Below are positions 656 to 16,956 of a DNA stretch of 64,000 nucleotides, one piece after another. The stretch's first letter is position 1; every line of letters starts with the position of its first letter. The stretch comes from Candidatus Obscuribacteraceae bacterium. GTDB taxonomy: Bacteria > Cyanobacteriota > Vampirovibrionia > Obscuribacterales > Obscuribacteraceae. The translations under genes and the position numbers were made by a program. The stretch spans positions 11,648-75,647 of the forward strand of contig JBGASG010000012.1 in the NCBI GenBank assembly GCA_044229845.1, read 5' to 3'. The notes beneath the pieces are model-generated. The model made no database searches, was not told the DNA's origin, and saw only the letters and a program-made list of their open reading frames with translations.

Positions 656-800
656 AAAACGCGCCGTAAACAGAGTACCGAGCCCTATTGCCCGGTTTGG
701 AAGATAATAGCAAAAAGCGCCGCCAGGAAGCAAAGCGGCGTTTGACGGTCACACTTTGCCTTTGTTACAACCTAAAGGTAGACGCTCTTGCAAGGTATCA

Positions 801-1544
801 ATGACGACTTCTAAGTTTTCCCTGTCTCTGACCATCGCTGGTCTGACCGTCCAGCTGATTACTTCGAGTTGCGCCGCCGCAGAAACGTCGCCGGCCAGCC
901 CGCCTCCGCCACCGCCACCCCGCAAGTCGCCGGCGAAATCGGGAGCAAAGCCCGCTCCTGCGGCTGCTTCCGCCAAGCCCAGCAGTTCGCCCAGCGCGCC
1001 GCCGCAGTCCTCAAGCCCGACAGCCTCTGCTGCCACAGGGAAAAAACCTCGCTCCGAGGTGCTCAATCCCGATCAGTTTTTCGGCATGGCAATGATCGGC
1101 TATGCAGCCGCAAAAGCCGCACCGGAAGTCATGGAAAACCTTTTTTGTTACTGCGGCTGCGATCTCACCGACAGCCACACCTCGCTTCTCGACTGTTTCA
1201 CCAGCATTCACGGCGTCGATTGCCACATCTGCCAGGACGAGGCACAGATTGCGCTGAAGCTGCATAAGCAGGGTCTGCCGATGCTGAAAATTCAGCAGCA
1301 AATCGATGAGGAATTTTCCAAGCAGTATCCCTTCGAAGAAGACACGCCGACTTACAAAAATTACAAGGCGCACCGTCTCTGGGTCAAAGGCGGCGCTGTG
1401 GACACAAAGCCCGATGCGGCTGCGTCCGGCAGCAACAGCGCTACCGGCAGCACCGGTCCCGATCCGAAAAATCCGAAGCTAAAACCAGGCGCAAAAGCCG
1501 GCAATTGCTGCGGAGCGAAACACACTTCCGACAAGGCGAAGTGA
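801..1544 (+). CDS. secreted PCYCGC-motif protein (leader peptide, Pro/Ala/Ser-rich linker, Cys-rich C-terminal domain)
   Basis: ORF 756..1544, with a likely ATG at 801 (MTTSKFSLSLTIAGLTVQLITSSCAAA looks like a signal or lipoprotein leader). A low-complexity PPPPPPPRKSPAKSGAKPAPAAASAKPSSSP linker follows. FCYCGCDLTDSHTSLLDCFTSIHGVDCHICQDEA then resembles the PCYCGC family signature (PF13798, from memory). Confidence 0.7.
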   Translation: MTTSKFSLSLTIAGLTVQLITSSCAAAETSPASPPPPPPPRKSPAKSGAKPAPAAASAKPSSSPSAPPQSSSPTASAATGKKPRSEVLNPDQFFGMAMIGYAAAKAAPEVMENLFCYCGCDLTDSHTSLLDCFTSIHGVDCHICQDEAQIALKLHKQGLPMLKIQQQIDEEFSKQYPFEEDTPTYKNYKAHRLWVKGGAVDTKPDAAASGSNSATGSTGPDPKNPKLKPGAKAGNCCGAKHTSDKAK

Positions 1545-1780
1545 CACCGTATTTGGCACCGCGTTGTCAAGCATTGTCGGTTGATACAGCTTTTATCGAA
1601 AGCCAGCCTGGCTGCGGGTCTCGCAAATATATCCAGCAGATTATCAGTGGTTGGAAAACGCGAAATTTAGATATCGGGCTTAAAGATCGTGTCTATATGT
1701 TTTCCCCACTTCCTAACTGTAAATTTAGTCGCTACAATTACTGGAGTGTTAGACGAAACACCTTGAAGGGGTGCGACCGA

Positions 1781-2173
1781 GTGACTTCAGTAGCCGCTGA
1801 CAACCTGGCGCCTTGGATCATCATCTCCGATGACAGATGTCCTGTTGTGCGCAAACTGAGCTGGTTGGTTCGCCAATGGGACAACGCCGGCAACTTCAAG
1901 TTCGTCAGCAAACATCATCACTCGGAAGGCGAAGCGACCCTCGTGCAAGAGCTTGATGCCTGCCCGTGGAGCCTGATTTTGATCCACGACGGCGACATGC
2001 GTTCCGCCGGTCCGGAAGCCATTCCTTTTATATTGCGCAATCTGCCGGGCGGCAAAATCGCCACGGTGGCTTATGTGGTGCCCGGCACCATGTGGTTGAC
2101 TCGCCAGCTGTACAATCTAGTCTCGCGCAACCGTCGCTTGCTGTCGGTACAACACGCCGCTTCCGCTCGCTAA
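1781..2173 (+). CDS. DCC1-like thiol-disulfide oxidoreductase family (DUF393) protein with degenerate CxxC (CPVV)
   Basis: Lies inside ORF 1505..2173. An in-frame GTG at 1781 preceded by GAAGGGG gives ~130 aa, the usual family size (alternative ATG at 1697). PWIIISDDRCPVVRKLSWLVRQWD and the C-terminal ILRNLPGGKIATVAYVVPGTMWLTRQLYNLVSRNR fit the family pattern. The second Cys is replaced by Val. Confidence 0.6.
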   Translation: MTSVAADNLAPWIIISDDRCPVVRKLSWLVRQWDNAGNFKFVSKHHHSEGEATLVQELDACPWSLILIHDGDMRSAGPEAIPFILRNLPGGKIATVAYVVPGTMWLTRQLYNLVSRNRRLLSVQHAASAR

Positions 2174-2188
2174 GCCGCTCCCCGCGCT

Positions 2189-3577
2189 CTAATGCTCTTT
2201 CTCTACCGGTTTGCTGGTAGCGATACGTGCCACTAATTTGTCGAGCGCCGCGCGACGTGAACCCTTGATCAAAATACAGGCATCGCTATCGAGTCGACGC
2301 ACTAGTTCGGTCTCGGCTTCGTTTTGATCGGCGCAGGGTATCACGTCAAAACCGGCTCCCTGAGCGCCTTCGGCAATGTTTCTCGCCAGATGACCAACCG
2401 TGATCAAAGCGTGCAGAGACTTGTCCTTCAGCCACTGCCCCAGCTCGCGATGCAATTCAGGTCCTTGCGGTCCCAACTCAGCCAGCTCGCCGACCACAAC
2501 TATGCGCTTCTTCTGAGGGCAGGCCGTGTCCGCCAGGATGCCCGCCACCGACGCCTTGACCGAGTCGGGATTACCGTTGTACGACTCATCTATTAGTAGA
2601 GAGCCCTCGCGCCCCACCATGCGATTGCCGCGTCCGCCAACCACTTCGAACTGACGCAGCCCGCGAACAATCAATTGCTCCTCGATGCCCAGTTCGTGCG
2701 CCGCCATGACCACACACCAGGCATCCTGCAATAGCGGCTCGCCATGCGCCCGCACTTCAAAGGTCGGTTCCAGTCCTTTCACTTTAAATTGCGTGCCGAT
2801 GTCAGTGATACCAACGACGGTGACTGATGAATCATCGAACAAACGAGTGCGTCCCTGCCAGAACTCCGGCAAGACCGTCATCAATTCAGGCGTCTGCCGT
2901 CCGATAATAGCCACTCCTCCGCCTCGCAAATGCATGAGCAATTCGCACTTGGCACGGGCGATGTTCTCCAACGAACCGAGCAGTTCTAAATGCGCGCTGC
3001 CGGCATTGGTGATGATGCCGACATCCGGCGCGGCACAACGTGCCAATTGATCTATCTGGCCCAGCCCCCGCATAGCCATTTCGATAATCGCTACTTGGGT
3101 GTCATCCGGCATATTGAGCAGAGTCTTGGGGACGCCGAACTCGTTGTTTTCGTTGGCCTTTGATTTATGGCACCGCAAGGCGGCACCAAATACGGAGGCA
3201 CACATTTCCTTCGTAGTGGTCTTGCCTGACGAGCCAGTAATACCGATCACTTTTGGATTTATACGGCGGCGCCAGTTTCGCGCCAGGTCATGAAAGGCAT
3301 CGAGACTGTCTTGCACAGCCATGAGCGGAAACGTCGAGTTGCCAATCGGATAGCTGGAGCGCTCGCCGACAATCGCTCCCAGCGCTCCCGCGGCAAAGGC
3401 ATCACCCAGGAAGTCGTGCCCGTCGAACGTTTCTCCCGAGAGGGCCAGGTACCACTGCCCGTCCTGCAACGCGCGCGTATCCGTGCAAATCTGCCCCGCG
3501 CCATCCGGCATCAATCCTTGCGCCAGGCGCGCGCCGCAAATGTCGATGATGTCCTCGGCGTTAAATTCGGCTGTCAT
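2189..3577 (-). CDS. murF: UDP-N-acetylmuramoyl-tripeptide--D-alanyl-D-alanine ligase
   Basis: 462-aa ORF with the Mur-ligase P-loop GITGSSGKTTTKEM. The MurF-type N-terminal domain is present (ICTDTRALQDGQWYLALSGETFDGHDF), along with central and C-terminal Mur ligase domains. Confidence 0.92.
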   Translation of the reverse strand: MTAEFNAEDIIDICGARLAQGLMPDGAGQICTDTRALQDGQWYLALSGETFDGHDFLGDAFAAGALGAIVGERSSYPIGNSTFPLMAVQDSLDAFHDLARNWRRRINPKVIGITGSSGKTTTKEMCASVFGAALRCHKSKANENNEFGVPKTLLNMPDDTQVAIIEMAMRGLGQIDQLARCAAPDVGIITNAGSAHLELLGSLENIARAKCELLMHLRGGGVAIIGRQTPELMTVLPEFWQGRTRLFDDSSVTVVGITDIGTQFKVKGLEPTFEVRAHGEPLLQDAWCVVMAAHELGIEEQLIVRGLRQFEVVGGRGNRMVGREGSLLIDESYNGNPDSVKASVAGILADTACPQKKRIVVVGELAELGPQGPELHRELGQWLKDKSLHALITVGHLARNIAEGAQGAGFDVIPCADQNEAETELVRRLDSDACILIKGSRRAALDKLVARIATSKPVEKEH

Positions 3578-3661
3578 TTATTTGCATCCGCGTGTTCAGG
3601 TGCCATCCGGCAGTTAGTATCCCACGGCGCGCGCCGCGAAATCCACCTCCGATTGTGTAAA

Positions 3662-4561
3662 TCAGGCGTCGACCGCCGCACCCACGAACAGGGAGCAGAG
3701 AAACACCGAGAAATCCTGCACGACCTTCGGACTGGGCGCCAGATCGGGATTGAGAATCGCCACATCCATACCCACGACCTTGCCTGATTTCAGGTGTTCG
3801 CGCAGAACTTGCTTGAGTTCAGAGTAGGTCAGCCCGCCGGCGAGCGGAAAGTCCACTGCCGGCATTTCGTCAAAATCAAGAACGTCGACATCGAGATGAA
3901 TCCACGTGCCTTTCGTCGGCAAGCCATCCAGATGCTTCGCCGACTGACGAGCCGCTTCCAGCGCCGTCAATTTGCGGACTTCTTCCAGATCATAGACCTT
4001 CATGCCGGTGGACTTAACGCTGACCGCACCCTCGGCGGCCGATTCGTCCTCATCGCGATAACCGAGGACGACAACGTTTTTGTCAGCTATGTATGATCTC
4101 TTGCCGTCGATGGCAGAAAGCACATCGGGACCGCGTCCGGTGATGATCGCCAACTCGGCAGCCGAAAGCTCGCCATCAGGGATGGTATCACCCTGATAGA
4201 AATCGCTGTGCCCGTCAAGAAACAGCAGCCCGTACTCGCCGAGCCTGGAAAGCCCAAGGGCGATGCCAATCAAAATGCTGCAGTCGCCGCCGACGATCAG
4301 CGGAAACTTGCCTTCGCTGAGAAACTTGACGATCTTGTCCGCCAGCGCCAGAGAATAATCGCGCGCCAGCGCTGCGTTACGCAACCCCGTATCCGGGTCG
4401 ATCTCGTCCGTCCCACCCATTGAAGGCATCCAGCCATGCCAGCTGGCGCCCAGGCAATCGAGCAGACCGGCGTCTTCGAGAGCTTCCGGCAAATTCTCCA
4501 CCCCGGTCTCACCTAGACCAAGGCAGGATGGAGCAGCAAATGGCGCGATGTCTCTTTTCAT
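3662..4561 (-). CDS. arginase/agmatinase/formiminoglutamase (ureohydrolase) family protein, atypical GGDCS motif
   Basis: 299-aa ORF with the family motifs in order: IVGGDCSIL, LFLDGHSDF (DAHxD type) and IHLDVDVLDFDEMPAVD (DxDxxD type). Confidence 0.85.
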   Translation of the reverse strand: MKRDIAPFAAPSCLGLGETGVENLPEALEDAGLLDCLGASWHGWMPSMGGTDEIDPDTGLRNAALARDYSLALADKIVKFLSEGKFPLIVGGDCSILIGIALGLSRLGEYGLLFLDGHSDFYQGDTIPDGELSAAELAIITGRGPDVLSAIDGKRSYIADKNVVVLGYRDEDESAAEGAVSVKSTGMKVYDLEEVRKLTALEAARQSAKHLDGLPTKGTWIHLDVDVLDFDEMPAVDFPLAGGLTYSELKQVLREHLKSGKVVGMDVAILNPDLAPSPKVVQDFSVFLCSLFVGAAVDA

Positions 4562-4631
4562 AGGCTTGCAGCGAGCAAGTCTATCATCGTGGCATCGTAC
4601 CGAGTGCCTGCAGGCGCTTGAGCGGAATGAG

Positions 4632-4808
4632 TTACGCCTCGACGGCGACTTTTTCTTCGCCCACGCTTTCAGTCACAGCAAACTTAGCAGCATCAGCCGG
4701 GTTCACTTCACGAGGGAAGGGACCCTTCTTGATGCGATCGTTAATTGCCTTTGAAAGAAGGCGGCTGGCGAAGTTGTTCCTGGTTGTAGTGGTTGTGCAA
4801 TCAGACAT
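4632..4808 (-). CDS. small hypothetical protein (58 aa)
   Basis: ATG at 4808..4806 is preceded by GGTGGAGGACGAATT, a strong SD. It is the C-terminal part of track ORF 4632..4952 and reads MSDCTTTTTRNNFASRLLSKAINDRIKKGPFPREVNPADAAKFAVTESVGEEKVAVEA. No family recognised. Confidence 0.5.
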   Translation of the reverse strand: MSDCTTTTTRNNFASRLLSKAINDRIKKGPFPREVNPADAAKFAVTESVGEEKVAVEA

Positions 4809-5061
4809 AATTCGTCCTCCACCCGGCGAAGGTGTAGATACACGGCTGGGTCGCAATCTTGTTTGATAGATTCGCGACCCGCCAACGCCTTCACTGATAG
4901 TAGTTGAGAACCGAATTGTTGGCAACCCGGTATTGATGCGGGTTAGACACATCTTATTGTTGGGGAGCCGCTCTCCTTCGTGTTCTTACGCTTATGGTTT
5001 GTGAGAAACCGCTCCAGATGCCGCCCACAGCGCACCACATCAGTATCAGCCCTTCGCCCAA

Positions 5062-5865
5062 TCAGTGTTTGACGGCGGCAGCAAATAGCTTCTCCTCGAA
5101 CAAACCCGAGTCATACAGGCTTTGCGGAGTAACGGTCTGCACAGCTCCGAACGTCGGCAGTTCGTCTTTGCGCACGTTCTTCTTGCGCTTCACGACCGCC
5201 TTCTCGATGAAGTTCATATGCAGCCGTCCGGGTTTGAATCCCGAGTGGATCGTCGCCAGCACATGCTGCGGGTCGTAATCGTCAGTGCGGGCAGCAGCAA
5301 GCGCCATCAGGATCCACTTATTGCAGTTGAGGCTGTCGGCGCTGTCGTATTGAGAGAGCAAGTTGTACTTGGTGGTGAAGGCCAGCTTGCGCAGCTTACC
5401 AGTCAAAACCGCGTCGTAGACTCGGTCTTGCGTCTCGTGATCGGGAATCAATACAAGCGCGTTTTCTTCATATCCTGTCTGCCCATAAAAGAAATCCACT
5501 GGTGCCAAGCGCCACAAGTCACAACTAGGTGGCATGGACTGACCAGTATTGAGAAGTTGATAGAGAATCCACGTCTGAGCGCGCGGGTCATACACCGCCA
5601 GCCCCGAGTGGGCCATTCCAGTCCAATCGCGTCCTTTCACATCATTTCCACCCTTGCGCGAAACTACAGCGACTATCGCCTTCTTCTCGTAAAGCGTCTT
5701 CTGCAGCCAATCGGTGAGATGTTTCGCAACCGTCAGTTTCTTCTCATCGATAAGTGCTGGTCCGTCGGTAGGGTTAGCGGCCACGCACGGCATCCCCTGA
5801 ACAGGCAACACAATTGCTGCCACCACCAGCACTTGCGTCCATAGATCAAGGATGACTTGTCGCAT
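5062..5865 (-). CDS. secreted DUF2145-like protein
   Basis: ORF 5062..5898. ATG at 5865 is preceded by GAAGGGAGCGGGCG (SD), giving MRQVILDLWTQVLVVAAIVLPVQG as a signal-like start. GMAHSGLAVYDPRAQTWILYQLLNTG...DLWRLAPVDFFYG...YNLLSQYDSADSLNCNKWILMALAAA follows the DUF2145 (PF09916) pattern as I remember it. Confidence 0.65.
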   Translation of the reverse strand: MRQVILDLWTQVLVVAAIVLPVQGMPCVAANPTDGPALIDEKKLTVAKHLTDWLQKTLYEKKAIVAVVSRKGGNDVKGRDWTGMAHSGLAVYDPRAQTWILYQLLNTGQSMPPSCDLWRLAPVDFFYGQTGYEENALVLIPDHETQDRVYDAVLTGKLRKLAFTTKYNLLSQYDSADSLNCNKWILMALAAARTDDYDPQHVLATIHSGFKPGRLHMNFIEKAVVKRKKNVRKDELPTFGAVQTVTPQSLYDSGLFEEKLFAAAVKH

Positions 5866-6280
5866 CGCCCGCTCCCTTCGGCTGCGGCCGCTGCTCATCC
5901 GCCAGCGCCTGGTTTAGTTCCAGATAATCGTTGCGCACCACTAGCGGTATCGTCTTTCCCTGCTTGCCGGTATGCACGACAACCGTACTCTCATTGCCTG
6001 AGGATGACTCCGTCGCTTCGACAGTTTCGATCACGTCGACAGTAAGGTCGGTCAATCCGCGACCGGCAGCACCAACAATGCGAACCACCTGCTTACCGCC
6101 GGCAATCGTCAGTGCTGCTGTCGCCGCGGATGCCAGTACAGGTGTGGCGATACCGGCAAGTCCGGCATATGCGGTGAGACCGCTGGCGTCGCCACTGGGC
6201 TCATCCGCCGCCTCCGCAGGCGTCAAGGCAAAAAGCGCAGCCGCAGCCAGAAGCGCCGCCACAGTTCGATTCATGTGCAT
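5846..6280 (-). CDS. secreted hypothetical protein
   Basis: 144-aa ORF with a clear signal peptide (MHMNRTVAALLAAAALFALTPAEA). The body is Ala/Gly/Thr-rich. Its stop overlaps the start of the downstream DUF2145-like gene. Confidence 0.6.
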   Translation of the reverse strand: MHMNRTVAALLAAAALFALTPAEAADEPSGDASGLTAYAGLAGIATPVLASAATAALTIAGGKQVVRIVGAAGRGLTDLTVDVIETVEATESSSGNESTVVVHTGKQGKTIPLVVRNDYLELNQALADEQRPQPKGAGDATSHP

Positions 6281-6391
6281 CTCCTCACTCTTGTTGCAAT
6301 GAGCGCTAACGCCGCTCTATCCAATTAGACCGTGCAGCGGCGGCGCACTAAGTTGAAGCCTTCACACTTAATCAACTGTTCGGGTGTGCAA

Positions 6392-8362
6392 TTAAATGCC
6401 GATGCGGTCGCGGTATCGCTTGATCAAAATCTGAGCTTCTTCGTAGTAGCCGGATGCGGGCGGAATCTGCTGCAGCGACTGAATGGCAGCGGGCAGGCGA
6501 TTGGCGCGCACATATTCGCGAGCGAGCGCCATGGACAGCTGATCCAGCTGTTCGTTGTCGGCAGCTCGATTGTCGTTGCGCAACAGTGCCAACACATGCC
6601 CGGCATCGTCCAGCTTGCCTTCAGAAAGTAACGTCTGACAATACTTTGGACTGGCCTGCGGCTGCGTCATAGCGATGCCCATAATGGCGCCGCCTGCGAT
6701 GATCACGCCCACCACGAGCAGCGTAATCAACATGCCGTGGCTGCTGGAAGCATCGCCGCCTTTGTTGCCGCTTGGCGCGAACGTCGTCGGCGCAAAACGT
6801 CCACTAGGAGTTGTGTCGTACTCCTCACTATCTCTATAAGTCTTAGTCCTGGCTCCAGAATCTCGCCAGCTGTAAGACTGATTGTTGGGGGTCGAAGTCT
6901 GGCTGGCTGGAGCAGCGGGCTGGCTCGGCGCAGCATCGGATAGATTGGACGGAACGGTGTCCGGCGTGGTCGCCGGGGTGTTTAGATAAGGACGCGGCGG
7001 TGCGGCACCGGCAGTGGGACGCAATGCGGGTTCTGGCGGCGGTGCGGGAGGTGCTGGTGCGGCTGGTGTCGGCTGCGCAGGCGGTTCGGCTGCCGGAGCG
7101 GCTGACGCAGACGGCACCCCCGGTGCAACGACCGGATTACCAGAGGGCTCCGCTGCAACGGGCACCGGTGCTGGAGTCGAAGACGAGGTCCACATGCCTG
7201 CATGGCTGGAGCCAATGTCAGCAGCTGGGGTCGGCGCGAGGTTTGGACTGTCAGCCACGGCTGCCGCACCTTCTATGACAGCTGCGGCACCCAGATTAGC
7301 CGGACCGGGGGGCGTGTCCGAAAGCAGTCCTTCCAGGCGTTTGAAAACATCGTGCGTCGAGGCATTACCGGTGGGATCAATGGGGCGCGCCGAGTCCGTC
7401 ACCGCAGTTGGTGCCGAGCGGGGCTTACAGGCCCGGTGGATCTCTTCCCAGAACTCCATCATCGACTGCGGGCGGTCGCTGGGGCTCTTAGATAGTGCGC
7501 GTTGCAACACCTGTTCCATCGCCGCCGGAATGGTCGCCTCGCATGTCACGCTTGCCACCGAGGGCGGTGCAGCAATCACGTGCGAAGAAATCAGATTGAT
7601 CAGGTCAGTCGACTTGAAGGGGACCACACCCGACAGCATCTGAAAAATCACCACTGCCAACGAATAGACATCTGACCGCACATCACCTGATTGTCCGAGA
7701 AAACGCTCCGGACTCATATAGACCGGACTGCCGAAGACCACGCCGGGAGCTGTCGAATCCGGATCGTTCATGCGCTCGGTACCCTTAGCAATACCGAAGT
7801 CGAGGATGATCACGTGGTTTTTGCGTCCCGCCCGCTCCACTAGAGCTATGTTTGCCGGTTTGATGTCCCGGTGAATCAAGCCCTGGTTGTGTGCTTCGCC
7901 AATCGCTTCGCACATCTGTTGAATGATCGGCAACGCTTCGAACAGCTCGAGCCGCTTGCGTTCGAGCAAATACTTATCCATGGTTGTGCCGTCCAGCAAC
8001 TCCATGGCAATGAAGGGTTGTCCGCCGGCGGCGATACCGAAGTCGTAAACGGTGATGATGTGGGGATGATTGAGCCGGCTGGCTGCCTTGGCTTCATGAT
8101 GAAACCGCTTGACCGCCTGCCGATTGGATGCCAGCTCTTTCGGCAAGACCTTGATCGCCACTTCCCGCGATACGGCCTCCTGCACTGCCCGATAAACCAC
8201 CCCCATCGAGCCCACACCGATAACATCGGTAATGCGGTAACGGTCCTCGATTACGCTGCCAATCAGCGGGTCGGTAATGAGCGGCATGAGGTCGGCGAAG
8301 TCATCAGGGCAATTCTGAATCTCATCGCCGAATTCCTTTTCGCACAGTGGACAAATCTTCAT
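6392..8362 (-). CDS. Hanks-type Ser/Thr protein kinase with N-terminal zinc-ribbon, Pro-rich linker, TM helix and TPR-like tail
   Basis: MKICPLCEKEFGDEIQNCPDD forms a Cys4-like ribbon. Kinase motifs are VAIKVL, HRDIKPANI, DFGIAKG and YMSPER. A ~190-aa Pro/Ala/Ser linker, the TM helix LITLLVVGVIIAGGAIMGIAM and a helical repeat tail follow. Confidence 0.92.
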   Translation of the reverse strand: MKICPLCEKEFGDEIQNCPDDFADLMPLITDPLIGSVIEDRYRITDVIGVGSMGVVYRAVQEAVSREVAIKVLPKELASNRQAVKRFHHEAKAASRLNHPHIITVYDFGIAAGGQPFIAMELLDGTTMDKYLLERKRLELFEALPIIQQMCEAIGEAHNQGLIHRDIKPANIALVERAGRKNHVIILDFGIAKGTERMNDPDSTAPGVVFGSPVYMSPERFLGQSGDVRSDVYSLAVVIFQMLSGVVPFKSTDLINLISSHVIAAPPSVASVTCEATIPAAMEQVLQRALSKSPSDRPQSMMEFWEEIHRACKPRSAPTAVTDSARPIDPTGNASTHDVFKRLEGLLSDTPPGPANLGAAAVIEGAAAVADSPNLAPTPAADIGSSHAGMWTSSSTPAPVPVAAEPSGNPVVAPGVPSASAAPAAEPPAQPTPAAPAPPAPPPEPALRPTAGAAPPRPYLNTPATTPDTVPSNLSDAAPSQPAAPASQTSTPNNQSYSWRDSGARTKTYRDSEEYDTTPSGRFAPTTFAPSGNKGGDASSSHGMLITLLVVGVIIAGGAIMGIAMTQPQASPKYCQTLLSEGKLDDAGHVLALLRNDNRAADNEQLDQLSMALAREYVRANRLPAAIQSLQQIPPASGYYEEAQILIKRYRDRIGI

Positions 8363-8453
8363 CGATTGAGCCTTACGCTCTCCTAATAGCTTCGCCCTCT
8401 AATCCGCCTTATAATCTGCGGAGCCCCAAAATTCAGGCAGGAGCATCAATTAC

Positions 8454-9482
8454 ATGCCCGAACTTTCGTCCCGGTCAAACGTTTCGGCAAACAAGGGCGG
8501 AGCTTTTACAGATGTCTCAAAACTGCCGGGCTGGCACCTCTGGCGTAGTCGCCGCCACCTCCTTGATGTTGACGATATCCAGGCCGAAGAGCTAAAAGCC
8601 CTGATGGCGCTGGCTGCCCATTGCAAAGAATCTTATGTAGACCGGGACTCTGAACCACTTCCCATTCTGGCACGAAAGACCATCGCCAATGTTTTCTACG
8701 AAAATTCGACAAGAACGCGCAGCAGCTTCGAATTAGCGGCACGCAAGCTCGGTGCCACCATCCTCAATTTCGAGCCCAAGATGTCGTCAGTGTCCAAGGG
8801 AGAAACGATATCGGACACTGCCAATATCCTCATCCAGCTGGGCGCCAGCGCCATCGTCCAGCGCCACAGTGCATCGGGCAGCGCTCACCAGATAGCGGCG
8901 GAACTTGGCGACCGCGTCCAGATTATCAACGCCGGAGATGGCTGGCATGCCCATCCTACTCAGGCTTTGCTCGACTATTTCACTATCACCGAAGTACGTC
9001 CGCAGGTGTCCGGCGCCAAGATTGCCATTGTCGGTGACATCAAACACAGTCGCGTGGCGCGTTCGAACATCGCACTCTTGACGCGTATGGGAGCGCACGT
9101 GCACGCAGTCGGTCCGCCTACCTTGCTACCGCTTCAACTGGACAAGCTGGGTGTCACCGTCCACACCCACCTGGAACCGGCGTTGGAAGGCGCCGACTTC
9201 GTCATCTGCCTGCGCCTGCAAACTGAACGCATGGAACAGGGCCTCATCCCCAGCATCGGCGAGTATAAGCGCCTCTACAGGATCGATCATCAAAAACTGA
9301 AGCTCTCCAGCAAAGCCGTGCGGCTTCTACACCCGGGTCCGGTCAACCGCAACATCGAAATCACCGACGCGCTCGTCAACGACGAAAACATCTCGCTCAT
9401 ATTCACACAGGTCCACAACGGAATCGCCGTCCGCATGGCGGCGCTCTACTTGCTGCTTGCCGACGACGAAGAGGAACGCTAA
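8454..9482 (+). CDS. pyrB: aspartate carbamoyltransferase catalytic subunit
   Basis: Contains ENSTRTRSSFELAA (STRTR carbamoyl-phosphate motif), HAHPTQALLD and LHPGPVNR. It has a ~35-aa N-terminal extension relative to typical PyrB if ATG 8454 is the start. Confidence 0.9.
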   Translation: MPELSSRSNVSANKGGAFTDVSKLPGWHLWRSRRHLLDVDDIQAEELKALMALAAHCKESYVDRDSEPLPILARKTIANVFYENSTRTRSSFELAARKLGATILNFEPKMSSVSKGETISDTANILIQLGASAIVQRHSASGSAHQIAAELGDRVQIINAGDGWHAHPTQALLDYFTITEVRPQVSGAKIAIVGDIKHSRVARSNIALLTRMGAHVHAVGPPTLLPLQLDKLGVTVHTHLEPALEGADFVICLRLQTERMEQGLIPSIGEYKRLYRIDHQKLKLSSKAVRLLHPGPVNRNIEITDALVNDENISLIFTQVHNGIAVRMAALYLLLADDEEER

Positions 9483-9486
9483 TCCG

Positions 9487-10776
9487 ATGACCGCTCCTGC
9501 GATTTTGATACAAGGCGGACTGGTGCTGGATCCAGCCTCCAGCAGCGAACGCGTCGCCGACATACGAATCAGCGACCAGCAGATAGCGGCGGTCGGAGAG
9601 AAACTGGAAAAACGCGACGGAGACACGGTTATCGATGCCAAAGGCATGTGGGTTTGTCCGGGGTTCATCGACCTGCACACCCACATGCGCGACCTCGGAC
9701 AAAAAGACAAAGAAGACGTAGTCAGCGCCACGAAAGCCGCAGCCGCAGGCGGATTCACCACTATCGTCGCCATGGCCAACACTGAACCGCCCGTCGACAA
9801 CACGGCGACACTACAGGTGGTGCTATCCCGCATCGCCGCCCACGCTCAGATAGAAGTCTTGCCGGTCGCTTGTGTCACTAAGGGTCTGCAGGGTGCCGAA
9901 CTCACCAATATGGTAGACCTGGCGGATGCCGGCGCTATCGCCTTCTCCGACGACGGCATGTGCATCATGAACATGGCAGTGCTACGCCGCGCCCTGGAAT
10001 ATTCCCGCCTGGCAGAGCGCGTGATCATCAGTCATTGCGAGGACAAAGATCTCGCGCTCGGTGGCGTCATACACGAAGGCGCCACGGCTACCAGACTGGG
10101 CTTGCCGGGCATCCCAACGACGTCTGAAACCGTGGCCGTGGCCCGCGAAATCGAAATGGTTCGCCAGTTCGATGCGCCGTATCACTTCACGCACATCTCG
10201 TGCGCCGACTCCGTCAATTTGATACGTCGCGCCAAGGAAGACGGGCTTCCTATCACAGCCGACGTCACTCCACACCACCTGACGTTGAGCGTCGACGAAA
10301 TCGAACCGTATCATACGTGTTATAAGATGAAACCACCCTTGCGCACCGCCCGCGATATCGAAGCGCTGATCAAGGGTCTAAAAGATCGCACCATCGACGC
10401 CATCGCCACCGACCACGCACCGCATACCAGACTGGAGAAGGCCGGTACAATGGCTGAGGCAAATGTCGGCATTATCGGATTGGAGTCGGCACTTTCAGTG
10501 ACGCTCGAGACGCTGGTTTCTTCAAAAGCTCTCAGTCCGCTCAAGTTTGTAGAACTGCTGACCACGGCTCCAGCTGCAGTTCTAGACCTGCCACAGCCAT
10601 CGCTGAGCGAAGGCGCAGTCGCCAACGTGACCGTCATCGATCCCAACACTAAGTGGACTTACGATGCCCACGCAGGTCATAGCAAATCAACCAATACCCC
10701 GTATCAAGGTCGCCAGCTCATCGGCCGGGTGATCACCACTATCTACCGCGGCAAGCAGGTCTACAAGCCCGCCTAG
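9487..10776 (+). CDS. pyrC: dihydroorotase (multifunctional-complex type)
   Basis: Track ORF starts at 9457. ATG at 9487 lies 4 nt after the pyrB stop and is the more likely start. Motifs: PGFIDLHTHMRD (HxH metal site), FTTIVAMANT and ATDHAPH. Confidence 0.9.
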   Translation: MTAPAILIQGGLVLDPASSSERVADIRISDQQIAAVGEKLEKRDGDTVIDAKGMWVCPGFIDLHTHMRDLGQKDKEDVVSATKAAAAGGFTTIVAMANTEPPVDNTATLQVVLSRIAAHAQIEVLPVACVTKGLQGAELTNMVDLADAGAIAFSDDGMCIMNMAVLRRALEYSRLAERVIISHCEDKDLALGGVIHEGATATRLGLPGIPTTSETVAVAREIEMVRQFDAPYHFTHISCADSVNLIRRAKEDGLPITADVTPHHLTLSVDEIEPYHTCYKMKPPLRTARDIEALIKGLKDRTIDAIATDHAPHTRLEKAGTMAEANVGIIGLESALSVTLETLVSSKALSPLKFVELLTTAPAAVLDLPQPSLSEGAVANVTVIDPNTKWTYDAHAGHSKSTNTPYQGRQLIGRVITTIYRGKQVYKPA

Positions 10777-10805
10777 GTTTGCGGAAGTCTATATAAAAGC
10801 AGCCT

Positions 10806-11501
10806 TTACAGGGCGATGAATTGGGACAGGTCACGCTTGAAATCTTCTGGCGTTTTGTACCAGCTTCTTTCAAGCAACACCTTGCCGTTGCCGTCAACGT
10901 AGATAACGCGCGGAAAACGTGTAACGTTGAAGCGCTTAGCCGTGGATTCATCCGCTTCAGCATCGATGCTGCGAAAATCAGCTTTGTTTCTCAGTTGGGA
11001 TGCAACCTGCTCCCACACGGGTTTGAACTCCGTGCAGTACTTTCACCAACTAGTCCAAAATTCGTACACTTTCAACCGCCCGGCAATCTGCGGACCAGTC
11101 GCTCCACCAGGCTGACCAGCAGCTTGTTGAGCCTGCTGCCCCGGCGACTGCTGTCCCGCAGGCGCTGGGTGAGTCTTCTCTAGCTGGGCGAGAGCCTGTT
11201 GCGCCTGCAGTCCAATTGCTGAATTGCCTGCCGCTCCAGCGACCCACTGAAAGTTTTGGCGCGCCATGGTGTACTGATGCATGCTCTGATAAGTCAAACC
11301 AAGGTAGTAATAGACCTCGGGATTCGATGGCGTTTGCCGGCCCGCCTGACCGAAATAGTTGAGCGCTTCGCTATATCGTTTGGCGGCGTAAGCTTTTTTG
11401 CCTTCATCTATTGGTCCGGCAAGTACAGCTTGGGTGCCGACGATCAGAGTTAGCGAAAGCCCCATGCTTAATTTCTTCCAGTGATGCGATCGTTCAACCA
11501 T
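10806..11501 (-). CDS. periplasmic TPR-like + thioredoxin-fold protein with in-frame TGA at the CxxC position (candidate selenocysteine, UxxC); alternative reading: nonsense-disrupted pseudogene
   Basis: Track ORFs 11043..11501 and 10806..11018 share one frame. The junction reads KVYEFWTSW-TGA-KYCTEFKPVWEQVA, with the TGA at 11043..11045. ATG 11501 follows GGAGGTTCTTCGA (SD), then a signal peptide (MGLSLTLIVGTQAVLAGP) and a TPR-like segment. The downstream part completes a Trx fold (RFPRVIYVDGNGKVLL). Confidence 0.6.
11013..11037 (-). promoter_or_regulatory. candidate SECIS-like hairpin 5 nt downstream of the in-frame TGA
   Basis: On the mRNA, CUGCACGG pairs with CCGUGUGG (8 bp, two G-U pairs) around the 9-nt loop AGUUCAAAC. 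The stem starts 5 nt after the UGA. Verified base by base on the plus strand (CCACACGG GTTTGAACT CCGTGCAG). Confidence 0.4.
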
Positions 11502-11566
11502 TCGAAGAACCTCCAGGGAAGAAACGGCAGTGTATCACGCGGCGAGCTTGTATCTATATTTTACGG

Positions 11567-11920
11567 CTACAGCAACCGGGCATACCAGGCATAACGGGCC
11601 AATCCAAGACCACCGCCCACCGCAACACCGGTCCTGGCGCTCCGCAACGATGATTGCCAGAGATCTTCGTACGAGTTGATCTTGCCGTCCAGAAAGTCAT
11701 TAGTGGGGACCGCAATCATCATCGCCACGTTACCCGCAATCATGTCACCGGCCGCGAATTTTCCCGCGCGCGCGATCGGACCGCCCCCTTCGTACAAGCT
11801 AAATCCCAAGCGGGTTGCCGTGGCGCGGTTGGTGGCCTCAGCCGCTCGAACGCCGATACCCATGCTCACTCCAATCATGGCTCCTGATCGCAGATCATCG
11901 AGCACCTGCCCCGCGTTCAC
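11567..11920 (-). CDS. hypothetical Gly/Ala-rich membrane protein (possibly the C-terminal part of the upstream ORF after a frameshift)
   Basis: 117-aa ORF with a GTG start and no SD. It contains glycine-zipper-like segments (GAMIGVSMGIGV, GVAVGGGLGLA) and overlaps ORF 11895..12659 by 26 nt. Confidence 0.4.
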   Translation of the reverse strand: MNAGQVLDDLRSGAMIGVSMGIGVRAAEATNRATATRLGFSLYEGGGPIARAGKFAAGDMIAGNVAMMIAVPTNDFLDGKINSYEDLWQSSLRSARTGVAVGGGLGLARYAWYARLL

Positions 11921-12659
11921 CGGCCATACGCGAGACAGCAGCCTTGGACACTGCTCCCACGGCAGCCAGAGCCAGTAAGTTTTTGCTGCGGAACGCCATT
12001 AAAGCGACCGCCATCCCGCCCGCCACAATGTTACCGGCAGTGTCAGCTGTCGGCATCCAGGACGACAATTGGCCTGAGCCGGGCTCCACCAGCGGTGACA
12101 CAATTGGGGCAGGCGGCTCAGTCGGTGGAGCAATCGGAGCAGGCGTGGGTGTTGAGGTTGATTTGCGCTTCTCCAGGATGATCGTCGTTTCTACTTCGGT
12201 TGAACCGACAGCATACAAGACCGTCACATTCGGCTTGTTTTCTGAAGTGGTACCGTTGGTGACCGTGACGGTACGACCTACTTCTTTGGAAATCTCCGCG
12301 GCAATCTGGTCGGACGAGGCATTGTTCGCCATCCACTCCGAAACACGGCGAGCAACCAGACTGTCTAGCTTGCCGTCCCGCTGCATCTGCCTTTGTTGCG
12401 CCATCATGTCAAAGCCGGCAGAATCTGTCAGCGATGCGGTGCTCACTTTGCCGACAATGGAATAGTCGGGATGGCTGGCTAGATCAAACTCTCTGTGCAA
12501 GCCGATGCCCAGTTGCGGCGCAGTCATTGCTGAAGCGGTGGCGAACAAATTGTTTTCCAGCCTGAGATTGAACTCGACTTTCAATGCATTGCGTTCAGTC
12601 GCGATGTACAGTTCCGGCTGCGCTTCGCTGTTTAAGCCTTTCGTTGACGATCTTGGCAA
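11895..12659 (-). CDS. hypothetical protein with Thr/Pro linker and hydrophobic Gly/Ala-rich C-terminus
   Basis: 254-aa ORF whose start is uncertain (TTG 12659). TSTPTPAPIAPPTEPPAPIVSP forms a linker, followed by GNIVAGGMAVALMAF. No family recognised. Confidence 0.45.
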   Translation of the reverse strand: MPRSSTKGLNSEAQPELYIATERNALKVEFNLRLENNLFATASAMTAPQLGIGLHREFDLASHPDYSIVGKVSTASLTDSAGFDMMAQQRQMQRDGKLDSLVARRVSEWMANNASSDQIAAEISKEVGRTVTVTNGTTSENKPNVTVLYAVGSTEVETTIILEKRKSTSTPTPAPIAPPTEPPAPIVSPLVEPGSGQLSSWMPTADTAGNIVAGGMAVALMAFRSKNLLALAAVGAVSKAAVSRMAGERGAGAR

Positions 12660-13303
12660 CCTTTGCCCAGTCTCCCTTTCGTATATTGGTAGTCAGCTCA
12701 CCCATGCGACTTCTCAGTCTGCGGGCAGATTCCGGCACCGCCTCGAGAGCGGCACTCAACCGATTAACATCCATACCAATCACCGTCGCCTTTGGCATTG
12801 TCTTGCCCAAAACAAAATTCGCGATGCGAACCCAGTTTGTATTCGACCGCAGGCGGCGCACATCCCAAGCCGAACGGCTCCGGGTCACCCTCGCCGCGCC
12901 ATCTCATATCGCGGGCTACGGCTACCATCGAATCCGAGAGCATACGCAGTGAAGCGGTTTCACTGGCATCACTGTTGGGTTCAAGACCTGGTTTCGAAAT
13001 CAAGTCAAACGACATCGGCGGCACCGTCCGTAGTGAAAGGGGTGTCGAGAGCGAAGCGCGGGGCTCAGCTCAATACATGCGGGATGTGCAGCCAAGTTTG
13101 TCAAACGCGCAGTGTCAGGTCTGCACGGTTTTTACTAATGAAGACCAGGCGAGTTAAATGAAACAGCTCTCAGGCTCGGAGATGGGAATGCCACCACATG
13201 CGGTGCGCTAATAGAGACGTAGATTTGCCCGGGATGACGAACGCCTAAAGGCGGTTGGAGGTTCCTTCAACACTTTCCTGTCAAGCCGCTAAAATGAGCC
13301 ACT

Positions 13304-13726
13304 GTGTCACCCATGCAATGGCTGCGCTTCAAGTTCCGACACCAGGGCGTTATTCTCATCTCCCTGGTGTTTGCCCTCATTGTCTTCAACGTTCCGCTAC
13401 AGCATTTCATCACCCTGGCGCGCTGGCAGCATTACGCGCTGTGCCTGGTTCCAGTTTCCGCCGGATACCTCATCCAGTTAGCGATTTCCTGGCGCCGCTT
13501 GCGTTTTTGGGGTAGAACGTGCCTCACCCTCTCGGCGGCATACCTGGCAGCGTTCGCCATCGTCATTTACACTAATCCCTGGCTCGATCCTGGAAGCCAA
13601 CTGGAGACGACGTATCAAAGTTCACTCCAGCGAGCGTTCGGTCTAGGGTTTCTTGCATTCGGCTTGATTCTAACCATCGCCCTGCTGGCCTGGAACTGGG
13701 AAGAGAAGGAGAAGCGCGACACGTGA
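13304..13726 (+). CDS. hypothetical integral membrane protein (about 4 TM segments)
   Basis: 140-aa ORF starting at GTG 13304 or ATG 13313. Hydrophobic segments include VILISLVFALIVF, ALCLVPVSAGYLIQLAI, LTLSAAYLAAFAIVIY and LGFLAFGLILTIALLAW. Its stop overlaps the next gene's start (GTGA). Confidence 0.55.
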   Translation: MSPMQWLRFKFRHQGVILISLVFALIVFNVPLQHFITLARWQHYALCLVPVSAGYLIQLAISWRRLRFWGRTCLTLSAAYLAAFAIVIYTNPWLDPGSQLETTYQSSLQRAFGLGFLAFGLILTIALLAWNWEEKEKRDT

Positions 13727-14250
13727 AGCGAATAGTGCTGCTTGTGGGCATTCCCGGCTCGGGAAAGACGACCCTCTCCAAACGTCTGACGGAACGCGGA
13801 TTTATCCGATTCTGCGCCGACGATATACGGCAGGAGCTCTGGGGCGATGCCGGCGATCAGAAAGACCCAGAGACCGTTTTCAACATTTTTTTCAAGAAAC
13901 TGGAAGAGGCGCTGATTCAGGGCGCCGATGTGGTGATCGACAACACCAATATCAACACGAAACACCGTCAGCCCATTCTGCAACGAGCTATTACTGCCGG
14001 CTACGAAGACATTCAGCTATGGGTCCTGGACACGCCTCTCAATATCTGCCTGGAACGCAACCGCTCACGCGCCCGCGCCGTACCCGACGATATCGTCACC
14101 AACATGTACAACAGCGTCACCGGTGCCGGCAGACCGCGGTCTCACGAAGGCAGAATTATTATTGTCCGCCCAGGAGTGGGCGATAACGACTTCCGGTTTT
14201 TCCCGCTTAAAGCTCCAGGACCACGTCCTACGCGAACATCTCCACACTGA
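13723..14250 (+). CDS. P-loop kinase of the AAA_33 / polynucleotide-kinase-like family
   Basis: Walker A in MKRIVLLVGIPGSGKTTLSKRL. VVIDNTNINTKHRQ matches the DNTN...R motif typical of PNK-like kinase domains. The start overlaps the previous stop. Confidence 0.7.
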   Translation: MKRIVLLVGIPGSGKTTLSKRLTERGFIRFCADDIRQELWGDAGDQKDPETVFNIFFKKLEEALIQGADVVIDNTNINTKHRQPILQRAITAGYEDIQLWVLDTPLNICLERNRSRARAVPDDIVTNMYNSVTGAGRPRSHEGRIIIVRPGVGDNDFRFFPLKAPGPRPTRTSPH

Positions 14251-14740: not shown

Positions 14741-16534
14741 TCAGGGCTTATATTCGAGCACCAGTGAGCCGTAAGGCGGCAAAGACACCTTATCTGGATT
14801 GGCAGGGGCGGCAGCGTTCGGCCAGCTGGCCTGCAACACCGAGCTATGCCCACGCCCGTGGCGCTGTTGCGGCTTCAGTTCGACCACCTGTTCTTCGGGA
14901 CTCATATTTACGGCAATCAGCAATAGCTGGTCGGGCGCCTGGCGCAGGTAAGAAACAACCTTAGGGTTGCCCTCTACTGCTTCATAGGTACCGTCGCGCA
15001 AAGCCGACGACTTTCGTCTCAATTGAATAAGGCTCTGGTAGTACCTGTATATGGACTGTTCGTCGGCCGTCTCGGACGCCACGTTATGGGTCTTGAAGTT
15101 GTCTGCCACGGGCACCCAGGTCTTTTTAGCTGTGGAGAAACCGGCGTTAGCTTCCGCGTTCCACTGCATGGGAGTCCTTTCGCCGTCGCGACCCTTTTCC
15201 TTGGGCCAACCGATTTTGCCAATCGGATCCTGGACCTCGTCCTTACTTACGGGATCGCGATTGGTCATACCAATCTCTTCTCCGTAATAGAGAATCGGCG
15301 TGCCCCGCAACGTAAGCAGCATCGTCGCCATCAGTTTGGCAATCTGGTCGTTGTGCTTGCCGTCTCCGTATCGAACGTAAGCACGCTGCTGATCGTGATT
15401 GCTGAACAGGTAAACCGGACATCCCTGCACCGGGTTGCCGTCCACCTCTTTGATAATCTTCTGGAACTGCTGCGCATCAAGTTTGTTGACGTCGGCAAAG
15501 AAGAAGTTCATGGGCAGCTGGATTTCATCGAGTTTCTTTCCATACATGTCCCACAAACCGCTGATGTCTGCAGTGAAGGTTTCGCCTATGACGACGCGGT
15601 CGCCATCGTACTTGCCCATCACGGTGCGCAACTCGCGCAACACATCATGAATCTGCGGCAGGCGGTCATTGAATTTGTGATCCATATTGGGATCGCCGAA
15701 ATTGTTGACGCCCGGCTTCGTCGGGTTATCTGTGAGCTTCTCGTCTTCATATAGGGTGCTGATTGCATCCAGGCGGAACCCCGCTACGCCTTTGTCGAGC
15801 CAGAAGCGCGTCACGTCGTACATCGCTTCTTTGACAGCAGGATTGCGCCAGTTGAGATCGGGTTGTTCCGGATAGAAGAAGTGATAGTAGTACTGACCGG
15901 TCGTCTTATCCAGCTGCCACGCCGAATGCCCGAAAACCGACTGCCAGTTGTTCGGGGGTCCACCGTTCTTGCCGTCGCGCCATACATAGAAATCTCTTTT
16001 GGAATCCTTGGCTGAAGACTTCGAAGCCACAAACCACGGATGCTTGTCGGAGGTATGGTTCATAACCAGGTCCATGATTATGCGGATATCGCGCTTCTTC
16101 GCCTCTCTCACCAGATTGTCGAAGTCGGCGAGCGTGCCGAATTCCGGTGCGATGTTGCAGTAGTCGGAGATGTCGTATCCGAAGTCTACTTGCGGCGACG
16201 GATAGCACGGCGTGATCCAGAGCGCGTCCACTCCCAGATCCTTCAAGTAATCGAGCTTGCTGGTAATGCCGTTGATGTCGCCGACGCCATCGCCATTTGA
16301 GTCCGCAAAACTACGCGGATATATTTCATAGAACACCGCGCGCTGCCACCAGGGCTTGGCTGTTCCTGCTCCCTCTTTCGGGAGCGGTTGCGGATCCATG
16401 GACGCCTCAGCGGGCACCTCTGCTGGTGCCGCGCCTGGCAACGCAAACGCGGAGGGCATTGCCGACCATGTCGATAAAGGCAGCAAAACAGAAAGACATG
16501 CAGCCGTCTGGCTGAATCTGCGCCAAAGCCCCAT
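14741..16534 (-). CDS. secreted GH13 alpha-glucosidase / oligo-1,6-glucosidase-like enzyme
   Basis: Signal peptide MGLWRRFSQTAACLSVLLPLSTWSAMPSAFA. GH13 conserved regions are FYEIYPRSFADSNGDGVGDINGI, DLVMNHTS, GFRLDAI, IGETF and LFSNHDQ. Confidence 0.9.
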   Translation of the reverse strand: MGLWRRFSQTAACLSVLLPLSTWSAMPSAFALPGAAPAEVPAEASMDPQPLPKEGAGTAKPWWQRAVFYEIYPRSFADSNGDGVGDINGITSKLDYLKDLGVDALWITPCYPSPQVDFGYDISDYCNIAPEFGTLADFDNLVREAKKRDIRIIMDLVMNHTSDKHPWFVASKSSAKDSKRDFYVWRDGKNGGPPNNWQSVFGHSAWQLDKTTGQYYYHFFYPEQPDLNWRNPAVKEAMYDVTRFWLDKGVAGFRLDAISTLYEDEKLTDNPTKPGVNNFGDPNMDHKFNDRLPQIHDVLRELRTVMGKYDGDRVVIGETFTADISGLWDMYGKKLDEIQLPMNFFFADVNKLDAQQFQKIIKEVDGNPVQGCPVYLFSNHDQQRAYVRYGDGKHNDQIAKLMATMLLTLRGTPILYYGEEIGMTNRDPVSKDEVQDPIGKIGWPKEKGRDGERTPMQWNAEANAGFSTAKKTWVPVADNFKTHNVASETADEQSIYRYYQSLIQLRRKSSALRDGTYEAVEGNPKVVSYLRQAPDQLLLIAVNMSPEEQVVELKPQQRHGRGHSSVLQASWPNAAAPANPDKVSLPPYGSLVLEYKP

Positions 16535-16956
16535 TACATCACCCCTGCCGGAACGGACAGAAGTATATCGCCACTTGCGCAGTGCTTACGTCAATCTGGC
16601 AATCTCTTGTCCGCACCGTTCAACTGGCACCGGCCCGCAGGAAAACGTGACCGCACTGGATGCGTCACCATCAGTAGTGGCAACCTGCATCGCCAGACAA
16701 ACGTCGCATAAATCAGAGAGTCAACTTTCATGGCATTCCGCGCATCCGGGACTTAACCGGTGATTTAACAAACCTCCAACCGTTATCGAAACGCTCCTCT
16801 TGAATATAGAAAAGAGATCCAAAATCCGCACCTCCGGCATGTCGGATATGCATACCGCGCATCCATCGGATATGGAATTAATGTAACAAGAACCCCGCCA
16901 GTGGCGGTATTGGGTAAGATTGGTAGTGTCATCCCCCATGGTTCGCCCTGGGGCCC

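Follow-up and report, generated by a model that had tools for sequence, protein, structure and literature searches.

Exported selenoproteins have been described or predicted. Formate dehydrogenases and [NiFeSe] hydrogenases of the periplasm are examples, and the periplasm is also where the families resembling DsbA, DsbG and thiol:disulfide interchange proteins act. Selenoproteins of the thioredoxin (Trx) fold that carry selenocysteine (Sec) in a UxxC motif are an established kind; the bacterial examples tabulated are Trx itself (PF00085, experimentally verified), a thiol:disulfide interchange protein (PF13098), and DsbA-like and DsbG-like proteins (PMC13188914, whose table gives no localisation). 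Reviews place the Cyanobacteria among the few bacterial lineages that apparently do not use Sec (PMC1794560, PMC9312934). Here we describe a gene at positions 10806..11501 (minus strand) of a stretch of 64,000 nucleotides (nt), referred to as the window, on contig JBGASG010000012.1 of Candidatus Obscuribacteraceae bacterium. In this gene a TGA stands exactly where a predicted secreted Trx-fold protein, fused to a tetratricopeptide repeat (TPR) module, should have its nucleophilic Cys. We consider it likely, with a probability of about 0.85, that this UGA, codon 153, encodes Sec and yields the active site W-U-K-Y-C. Like the described Trx-fold UxxC selenoproteins, the predicted protein has a Trx fold with Sec in place of the N-terminal Cys of CxxC and has Cys homologues, and its candidate selenocysteine insertion sequence (SECIS) lies within the coding region, directly 3' of the UGA. 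Unlike them, it has an N-terminal TPR module and a long low-complexity linker. The mechanism proposed does not differ from the usual one of bacteria. The novelty lies in the family of secreted TPR-fused proteins, its mis-annotation, a tandem-hairpin SECIS candidate, the host lineage and the exchange of alleles.

When the minus-strand frame is read directly from 11501 to 10806, its sole interruption is the TGA at 11045..11043. The open reading frame (ORF) 11043..11501 closes with this codon, and the same frame runs on without a stop to the TAA at 10806..10808; the second listed ORF, 10806..11018, is this same frame counted from its first GTG, 8 codons past the TGA. These coordinates confirm the arrangement described in the original prediction, a model's reading of the letters alone, namely two ORFs in one minus-strand frame with the TGA and 8 codons between them. 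The junction, LKVYEFWTSW-TGA-KYCTEFKPVWEQVASQL, also reads as it had been given there. Read through, the gene comprises 231 codons and a stop (ATG 11501..11499, TAA 10808..10806), and full-length Cys orthologues of 229 amino acids (aa; P0001) and 241 aa (P0002) are colinear with it. The junction-spanning tryptic peptides of the read-through product would be VYEFWTSWUK and YCTEFKPVWEQVASQLR.

The Trx-fold domain occupies 10809..11078 (minus strand, residues 142-231), with the active site W-U153-K-Y-C156 and the cis-Pro P197. With Cys in place of the TGA, residues 144-205 match the Pfam family PF00085 (Thioredoxin) at 46.3 bits against a cutoff of 23.5, in agreement with the earlier claim that the downstream part supplies the rest of a Trx fold. 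The WCGHC of Trx and protein disulfide isomerase (PDI) domains in the PDB aligns exactly with W-TGA-KYC (EFWTSW-U-KYCTEFKPVWEQVA), which places the TGA (11043..11045, minus strand), the putative Sec codon, at the nucleophilic Cys, as had been proposed. The resolving Cys of UxxC, Cys156 (TGC, 11034..11036, minus strand), is kept in every Sec and Cys form examined. Among 56 full-length family members, the W and both Cys columns, including that of codon 153, are conserved in at least 90%, and P197 is invariant. The motif comes after the strand LKVYEFW, and in an AlphaFold model of a Cys orthologue a helix begins at the motif and the elements follow the order beta-alpha-beta-alpha-beta-beta-alpha; this model, made from a 4-sequence alignment and of low confidence (mean predicted local distance difference test, pLDDT, 56), is good for secondary-structure order only. 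No NCBIfam model recognises the protein, the top matches being generic Trx models below their cutoffs. The NCBI entry MFN8655577.1, 'tetratricopeptide repeat protein', covers the 152-aa stub only, and the 70-aa downstream ORF stands apart (P0012). This public annotation as a truncated gene is a mis-annotation.

Conservation of the TGA and of the downstream half

The first homologue search returned four clusters. Two of them, P0001 and P0002, are full-length Cys forms with FWTKWCKYC, and the other two are stubs that stop at FWTSW (P0003, 99% identical, and P0004, 74% identical). All assemblies of the window's lineage read TGG TGA AAG TAC TGC at this site, and so does a second lineage (L001, L014, L015; for L015 the TGA is deduced from its 181-aa gene call, which stops there), while the Cys forms L008 and L011 read TGG TGC AAG TA[CT] TGC. 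The alignment of homologues that the original prediction had proposed as a check therefore finds both codons, TGC in L008 and L011 and TGA in the others, and the position matches the first Cys of the Trx and PDI domains as well. Reads with TGC or TGT at this codon had been named as evidence against recoding; the opposite was found, since TGA is present in all of at least 12 independent assemblies of that lineage, which come from several sequencing projects and represent three haplotypes. Altogether, TGA occupies codon 153 in L001-L007, L012, L014-L015, L017-L020, L022, L024 and L026-L029. A scan of genome collections located the orthologue in the metagenome-assembled genome (MAG) 'Candidatus Obscuribacterales bacterium STL-CYA3' (JAXLXI010000002.1), which is 84-98% identical to the window at the nt level over 20 kb and differs from it within the gene at 7 synonymous positions.

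An exhaustive HMMER search with a Cys orthologue gave 3162 relatives at E ≤ 1e-3. Many of these are full-length proteins of 215-260 aa with a signal peptide, a TPR module, a linker and a Trx domain. At least eight representative clusters measure 143-156 aa. Seven of these stop exactly at the W that precedes the Cys; the P0274 cluster ends ...TDT and lies outside the six loci compared at the DNA level. A 75-aa downstream stub was also among the relatives. In all six stub loci compared at the DNA level, the stub is followed by TGA, xxC and then in-frame Trx-domain sequence, which is intact to the stop codon in five of the six; the contig of the sixth, L027, ends before the stop codon. The junctions read EFWTSW-U-KSC (L022), EFYTDW-U-VHC (L024), EFSTDW-U-GAC (L026), DFYTDW-U-AAC (L027), EFYADW-U-GVC (L028) and EYYTDW-U-TYC (L029). 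Together with the window and L014, these loci make up eight TGA lineages that extend down to about 40% protein identity. One of the six is again from Candidatus Obscuribacterales, and the TPR-Trx family has so far been seen in Obscuribacterales-type contigs only; a scan of metagenome contigs gave one unrelated weak TPR match (L013) and nothing else.

Across the family, codon 153 alternates between TGA and TGC/TGT only, and no lineage has a frameshift or a second stop in the TPR-Trx gene. In a neighbour-joining tree all Sec forms fall into one subclade, where they are mixed with the Cys forms P0001, P0002, P0136 and P0140. Because Sec and Cys forms interleave in this way, the tree implies that Sec and Cys have probably replaced each other repeatedly in the family.

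Selection on the two halves was compared between the window and L014, both of which carry the TGA and between which synonymous divergence is saturated. The ratio of non-synonymous to synonymous substitution rates (dN/dS) is 0.023 upstream of the TGA. From the 21st codon past the TGA to the end of the gene there are 25 synonymous and 3 non-synonymous changes, giving a dN/dS of 0.015. As this value is level with that of the upstream half, the downstream half is kept as protein by purifying selection in both TGA lineages. Independent decay of the two halves, which the original prediction had put forward as evidence against itself, is the opposite of what was found: both are conserved together.

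RNA constraint and hairpins downstream of the TGA

Between the window and L014, a block of 71 nt (10981..11051, minus strand) that begins 6 nt ahead of the TGA and continues for 62 nt beyond it is invariant; counted from the TGA, 65 nt carry zero substitutions. Over codons +1 to +20 past the TGA, none of 11.7 synonymous sites has changed, whereas 65-75% differ elsewhere in the gene, and the run of 23 identical codons was matched in none of 100000 shuffles. In the same 20 codons the Cys forms show 7-8 synonymous differences from the Sec forms and 12 between each other. This pattern is the signature expected of a putative RNA element that is needed only together with UGA.

Two adjacent hairpins are predicted in the block. 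The first, H1 (11013..11037, minus strand), consists of 8 bp, CUGCACGG/CCGUGUGG, closing a 9-nt loop, AGUUCAAAC, at -9.4 to -10.6 kcal/mol, and an equally good fold occurred in 1 of 200 shuffles; its minimum-energy fold has 6 bp plus 2 apical pairs, and its energies extend to -12.2 kcal/mol. H1 is gone in the Cys form L008 and much weaker in L011 (-4.5 vs -12.2 kcal/mol). Its CGG..CCG core reappears in L022, L024, L026 and L028, in shifted registers and with loops that have no leading G. The second hairpin, H2 (10996..11015, minus strand), lies directly 3' of H1 and reads U-GGGAGCA-[GGU]-UGC(A)UCCC-A, with its apical loop (11005..11007) 35 nt past the UGA and an energy of -8.5 kcal/mol.

The published model of the bacterial SECIS (bSECIS) asks for a loop of 3-9 nt, an upper stem of 4-16 bp, a G in the first two loop positions, a distance of 16-37 nt from the UGA and a minimum free energy ≤ -7.5 kcal/mol (PMC13188914). 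H2 agrees with the model on every count (loop GGU, 7-8 bp with one bulge, 35 nt, -8.5 kcal/mol) and is the best SECIS candidate. H1, which the original prediction had put forward as SECIS-like, departs from it on spacing alone, as its loop begins 13 nt past the UGA. The 8-bp hairpin proposed there is real and a SECIS just downstream of the TGA is supported, but H1 stands too near to the UGA, its register shifts between lineages and its loops have no consensus G, and it is H2 that fits the model and is conserved.

Criteria of the bSECIS type are permissive, about 5-6% of the 2006 UGA triplets in the window passing a comparable hairpin test, and the weight of the evidence for a SECIS therefore rests on conservation. 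H2 is found at the same codon-aligned position in six of the eight Sec lineages, with an invariant GGGA/UCCC base. An upper G-C pair is replaced by A-U in L024, a compensatory change, and in L028 the hairpin is a perfect 8-bp stem with a GGUC loop (-11.1 kcal/mol). Over the 8-sequence alignment, 81% of the cells are paired, against 72% in shuffled alignments (0 of 500 as good) and 22-48% when the partners are slid, and three pairs have changed on both sides. In the Cys forms, nothing of H2 is left in L008 and only the basal GGGA/UCCC pairs in L011. RNAalifold, run on the ungapped 8-sequence alignment, recovered the base of H2 only, because the upper stems lie in shifted registers. L027 (147..776) and L029 (207..914), which have no H2, carry GGGG where the Trx fold has its cis-Pro motif. 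This subgroup may rely on a different SECIS element or may have a modified fold.

The closest described counterpart of H2 is the SECIS of Escherichia coli fdhF, whose apex, read from the K-12 genome, is GCA-GGUC-UGC with a bulge below. As in fdhF, H2 lies within the ORF downstream of the UGA, has a GCA/UGC apical stem closing a G-G-U(-C) loop and has one bulged nucleotide below the apex; the GGUC loop is identical in L028. Unlike in fdhF, the loop starts 35 nt past the UGA in the window, against 18 nt, the bulged nucleotide is an A in the 3' strand of the stem rather than a U in the 5' strand, H1 comes as an additional hairpin between the UGA and H2, and binding of H2 by SelB is putative.

Sec machinery and competing readings

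Several observations weigh against a Sec codon. Across the 64-kb window and some 200 kb of related loci, roughly 260 kb in all, neither selA, selB or selD nor the tRNA for Sec (tRNA-Sec) turned up: tblastn with E. coli SelA, SelB and SelD gave no match there, and ARAGORN found no tRNA-Sec in the window or related loci and no tRNA at all in the window. Scans of the window for in-frame TGA, both between long ORF pairs and in Cys-motif contexts, yielded no second credible selenoprotein gene. The gene at 756..1544 (plus strand) matches NF041379, 'CYCXC family (seleno)protein', at 99 bits against a cutoff of 90 and is a Cys form (FCYCGC); among its best 120 relatives, many of them from Obscuribacterales, PF13798 is retained and the proteins are untruncated and apparently carry Cys. 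On the RNA side, L024 and L026 have a weak H2 and L027 and L029 have none. Rfam yielded neither a SECIS nor any other meaningful family, either at the gathering threshold or at E ≤ 10, the fold stability of the whole region is ordinary (z -0.8 to -1.3), and the contrast between Sec and Cys forms rests on two Cys-form DNA sequences (L008, L011). Finally, the Cyanobacteria are described in reviews as lacking the Sec-decoding trait (PMC1794560, PMC9312934); these surveys predate the Vampirovibrionia or leave them unmentioned. A literature search on Sec in Obscuribacterales, Melainabacteria or Vampirovibrionia returned nothing relevant, and a search for homologues of E. coli SelA gave only enterobacterial entries among the matches listed.

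A changed genetic code was considered and excluded. Of the window's 57 ORFs, 34 end in TGA, more than in any other ordinary stop. Among them are dapC, dapE and pepA, and the proteins that these encode follow their family models right to the C-terminus; since TGA closes ordinary genes in this way, the code is the standard one.

That no Sec machinery was found in these sequences would be accounted for by Sec-independent recoding, in which a near-cognate or suppressor tRNA places Trp, Cys, Gly or Arg at the UGA, stimulated by RNA structure, yielding a mixture of TPR-only and full-length protein that calls for no Sec machinery. The reported lack of Sec in Cyanobacteria (PMC1794560, PMC9312934) is in line with this, and the conservation of the TGA, the purifying selection downstream and the RNA constraint would fit a read-through signal equally well. 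We nevertheless regard such recoding as unlikely. The UGA falls on the sole residue where Sec is chemically equivalent to Cys, whereas Trp, Gly or Arg would abolish the CxxC chemistry; the family exchanges TGA for no codons other than TGC and TGT at this position; and H2, both by its apex and by its spacing from the UGA, agrees with the SelB-type SECIS model and with fdhF. It is distinctly improbable, in our judgement, that Obscuribacterales have no SelA, SelB or tRNA-Sec and decode the conserved UGA with its invariant 65-nt RNA by an undescribed mechanism, of which structure-directed insertion of Cys or another residue at the catalytic site would be one possibility. If this were true, recombination within a species would be swapping Sec-like and Cys alleles.

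Very improbable indeed is a split gene, in which translation stops at the TGA to give a secreted 152-residue TPR protein and the segment of about 70 residues is made separately or not at all. Gene callers and NCBI annotate the locus in this way, and the GTG start 8 codons past the TGA has GGAG 10 nt upstream. However, the fragment would be devoid of beta-1 and of the whole UxxC motif, so that no redox-active Trx fold would be possible. The 8 codons between TGA and GTG moreover retain the family's xxC and FKP residues. Nor do the lineages share an internal start: the codon corresponding to the window's GTG is GTC in L022, no downstream ORF can be called in L022 or L028, and the position of the first start codon varies among the others. 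Such a fragment would also be cytoplasmic and parted from its exported TPR partner, and the dN/dS of 0.015 rules out an untranslated remnant.

A pseudogene or artefact, that is, a nonsense mutation or a sequencing or assembly error at the Cys codon of a decaying gene, needs a single base change (TGC to TGA) next to a gene that is truly a pseudogene in the window, yet it is refuted in practice. The identical TGA recurs in 12 or more assemblies that several projects produced independently and in seven other lineages, strong purifying selection acts on both halves of a gene with neither frameshift nor second stop, and the TPR-Trx gene is intact in the very genomes in which the adjoining 492-aa gene has suffered frameshifts or deletions. 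One TGA in place of a Cys codon might be nonsense; eight diverged TGA lineages with in-frame Trx sequence are not chance, and the earlier judgement that recoding is likelier than a random nonsense mutation holds.

Protein architecture and proposed route to the active enzyme

Upstream of the Trx domain, the gene has the strong Shine-Dalgarno sequence that had been claimed for it, GGAGG at 11510..11514 (minus strand), 8 nt before the ATG. Residues 1-28 (11418..11501, minus strand) form a predicted Sec-type signal peptide, MVERSHHWKKLSMGLSLTLIVGTQAVLA, followed by GP. Judged by eye, the N-terminus MVERSHHWKK / LSMGLSLTLIVGTQAVLA / GP shows a basic n-region, a hydrophobic core and a VLA cleavage motif, and a comparable hydrophobic segment with an AxA-like end is seen across the 56-member family alignment. 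The TPR-like helical module (11178..11411, minus strand, residues 31-108) bears out the N-terminal module of the original prediction by thin margins, with one or two repeats only: TPR_11 matches residues 36-73 at 28.4 bits against a cutoff of 26.8, and TPR_2 matches residues 61-85 at 28.2 against 27. Its HYYxGLCYQ..NQ...A..EY.WV motif is conserved family-wide. A low-complexity linker rich in Q, A, G and P (11079..11177, minus strand, residues 109-141) joins the module to the Trx domain; it differs among homologues in length and sequence, and in the AlphaFold2 model its pLDDT is below 50. The core of the original prediction, a UxxC selenoprotein in a secreted TPR-Trx fusion, was supported by every comparative test run.

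CnoX/YbbN is a cytoplasmic protein with an N-terminal Trx domain and C-terminal TPR repeats, and the active site of E. coli CnoX is SxxC. Like CnoX/YbbN, the predicted protein unites one Trx domain and TPR repeats in a single polypeptide, and by analogy this suggests that redox activity may be coupled to protein-protein binding. Unlike CnoX, it has the TPR module first and the Trx domain last, a signal peptide and a full UxxC or CxxC motif. Identity with the CnoX/YbbN chaperedoxins was rejected on the order of the domains and the signal peptide, and searches of NCBIfam and the PDB gave no significant specific match to CnoX/YbbN.

In the explanation that we favour, 10806..11501 (minus strand) would be one functional gene encoding a secreted thiol:disulfide oxidoreductase whose mature form has about 200 residues. 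From the N-terminus onward, the product would consist of a signal peptide, a single TPR-like module, a flexible linker and a minimal Trx fold. During translation, the mRNA just 3' of the UGA would form the two adjacent hairpins, and H2, with its apex GCA-GGU-UGC and its loop at +35 nt, would act as the bacterial SECIS, recruiting SelB·GTP·Sec-tRNA(Sec) to the ribosome so that Sec is inserted in place of termination. The completed chain would then leave the cytoplasm by way of the Sec translocon. Once in the periplasm, its selenolate would attack disulfides or sulfenates of substrates and Cys156 would resolve the selenenylsulfide, while the TPR module probably binds partners or substrates. The remark in the original prediction that an exported selenoprotein would be unusual, as Sec has to be inserted before export, is weak, because Sec insertion is co-translational and exported selenoproteins are already known or predicted. 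What is truly unusual is the host phylum, Cyanobacteriota, described by reviews as not using Sec (PMC1794560, PMC9312934).

Genomic neighbourhood, allele exchange and implications

The window is otherwise made up of housekeeping genes: murF, an arginase-like gene, a Ser/Thr kinase gene, pyrB, pyrC, a ClC channel gene, pepA, pepP, rsgA, an ABC-F gene, dapC and dapE. A 1827-aa ORF at 21629..27112 (minus strand) has an 1833-aa orthologue in L008 with no Pfam match on record. At 13723..14250 (plus strand) lies an AAA_33/zeta-toxin-like P-loop kinase with a weak likeness to L-seryl-tRNA(Sec) kinase. With 61 bits where the cutoff is 290, it was rejected as PSTK and does not belong to the Sec pathway. 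Among the close relatives whose contigs reach that far, the kinase and an adjacent ORF of 137-140 aa are conserved neighbours in L002-L004, L008, L014, L015 and L017. Directly upstream of the TPR-Trx gene, at 11570..13015 (minus strand), is the remnant of a 492-aa hypothetical gene in four reading-frame pieces. This decaying accessory gene, which has no family match, is intact in L002 (2680..4158), partly deleted in L012, nearly gone in L017 and absent in L008 and L014.

On the other side, pyrC is convergent with the TPR-Trx gene and ends 29 nt from it. Between the window and the Cys-allele MAG L008, pyrC is 95.8% identical with a synonymous divergence (dS) of 0.15, and pyrB has a dS of 0.36, while the TPR-Trx gene itself is only 77.6% identical at the nt level with a dS of 1.77. 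Between the window and the Sec-allele strain L017, on the other hand, the TPR-Trx gene differs at 9 of 696 nt and pyrC has a dS of 0.23, which makes the window's pyrC nearer to that of the Cys strain than to that of the Sec strain. Because diverged TPR-Trx alleles sit amid similar flanks, in a mosaic pattern with L008 and L017, the Sec and Cys versions are best read as alleles that have diverged deeply and undergo recombination between near-conspecific genomes. The segment exchanged spans approximately 10769..13274 (compare 9842..10694 in L008). Sec and Cys versions would interconvert and also be swapped by recombination among Obscuribacterales genomes.

No operon around the Sec-form genes is conserved across lineages. 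In L028, an Obscuribacterales contig, the Sec-form gene (10001..10432 onward) is flanked by VirB4/TrbE-like and TraG/VirD4-like genes (1612..8819) and, at its opposite end, by a relaxase gene (15993..16811), and it may reside on a conjugative element, which would help to explain the exchange of alleles. Two other Sec-form genes stand near genes for redox functions or envelope stress. The neighbours in L022 (4314..9998) are an Fe/Mn superoxide dismutase, TonB-like genes and subunits of cytochrome bd oxidase, and those in L024 (7828..13663) are a PDZ protein, an AhpC/Prx-type redoxin and a trypsin-like protease.

Read as a selenoprotein gene, the locus corrects a systematic mis-annotation, as public records give no more than the 152-aa stub, under the name 'tetratricopeptide repeat protein', and a 70-aa ORF standing as an orphan, and it would add a secreted, TPR-fused family to the Trx-fold selenoproteins. 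The tandem-hairpin element is a testable SECIS variant. With diverged Sec and Cys alleles at one locus and flanks at a dS of 0.15-0.36, these genomes offer an unusually clean natural system for studying the preference for Sec or Cys. For the organism, Sec in this protein would imply Sec decoding in the Vampirovibrionia (Obscuribacterales), a non-photosynthetic sister class within the Cyanobacteriota.

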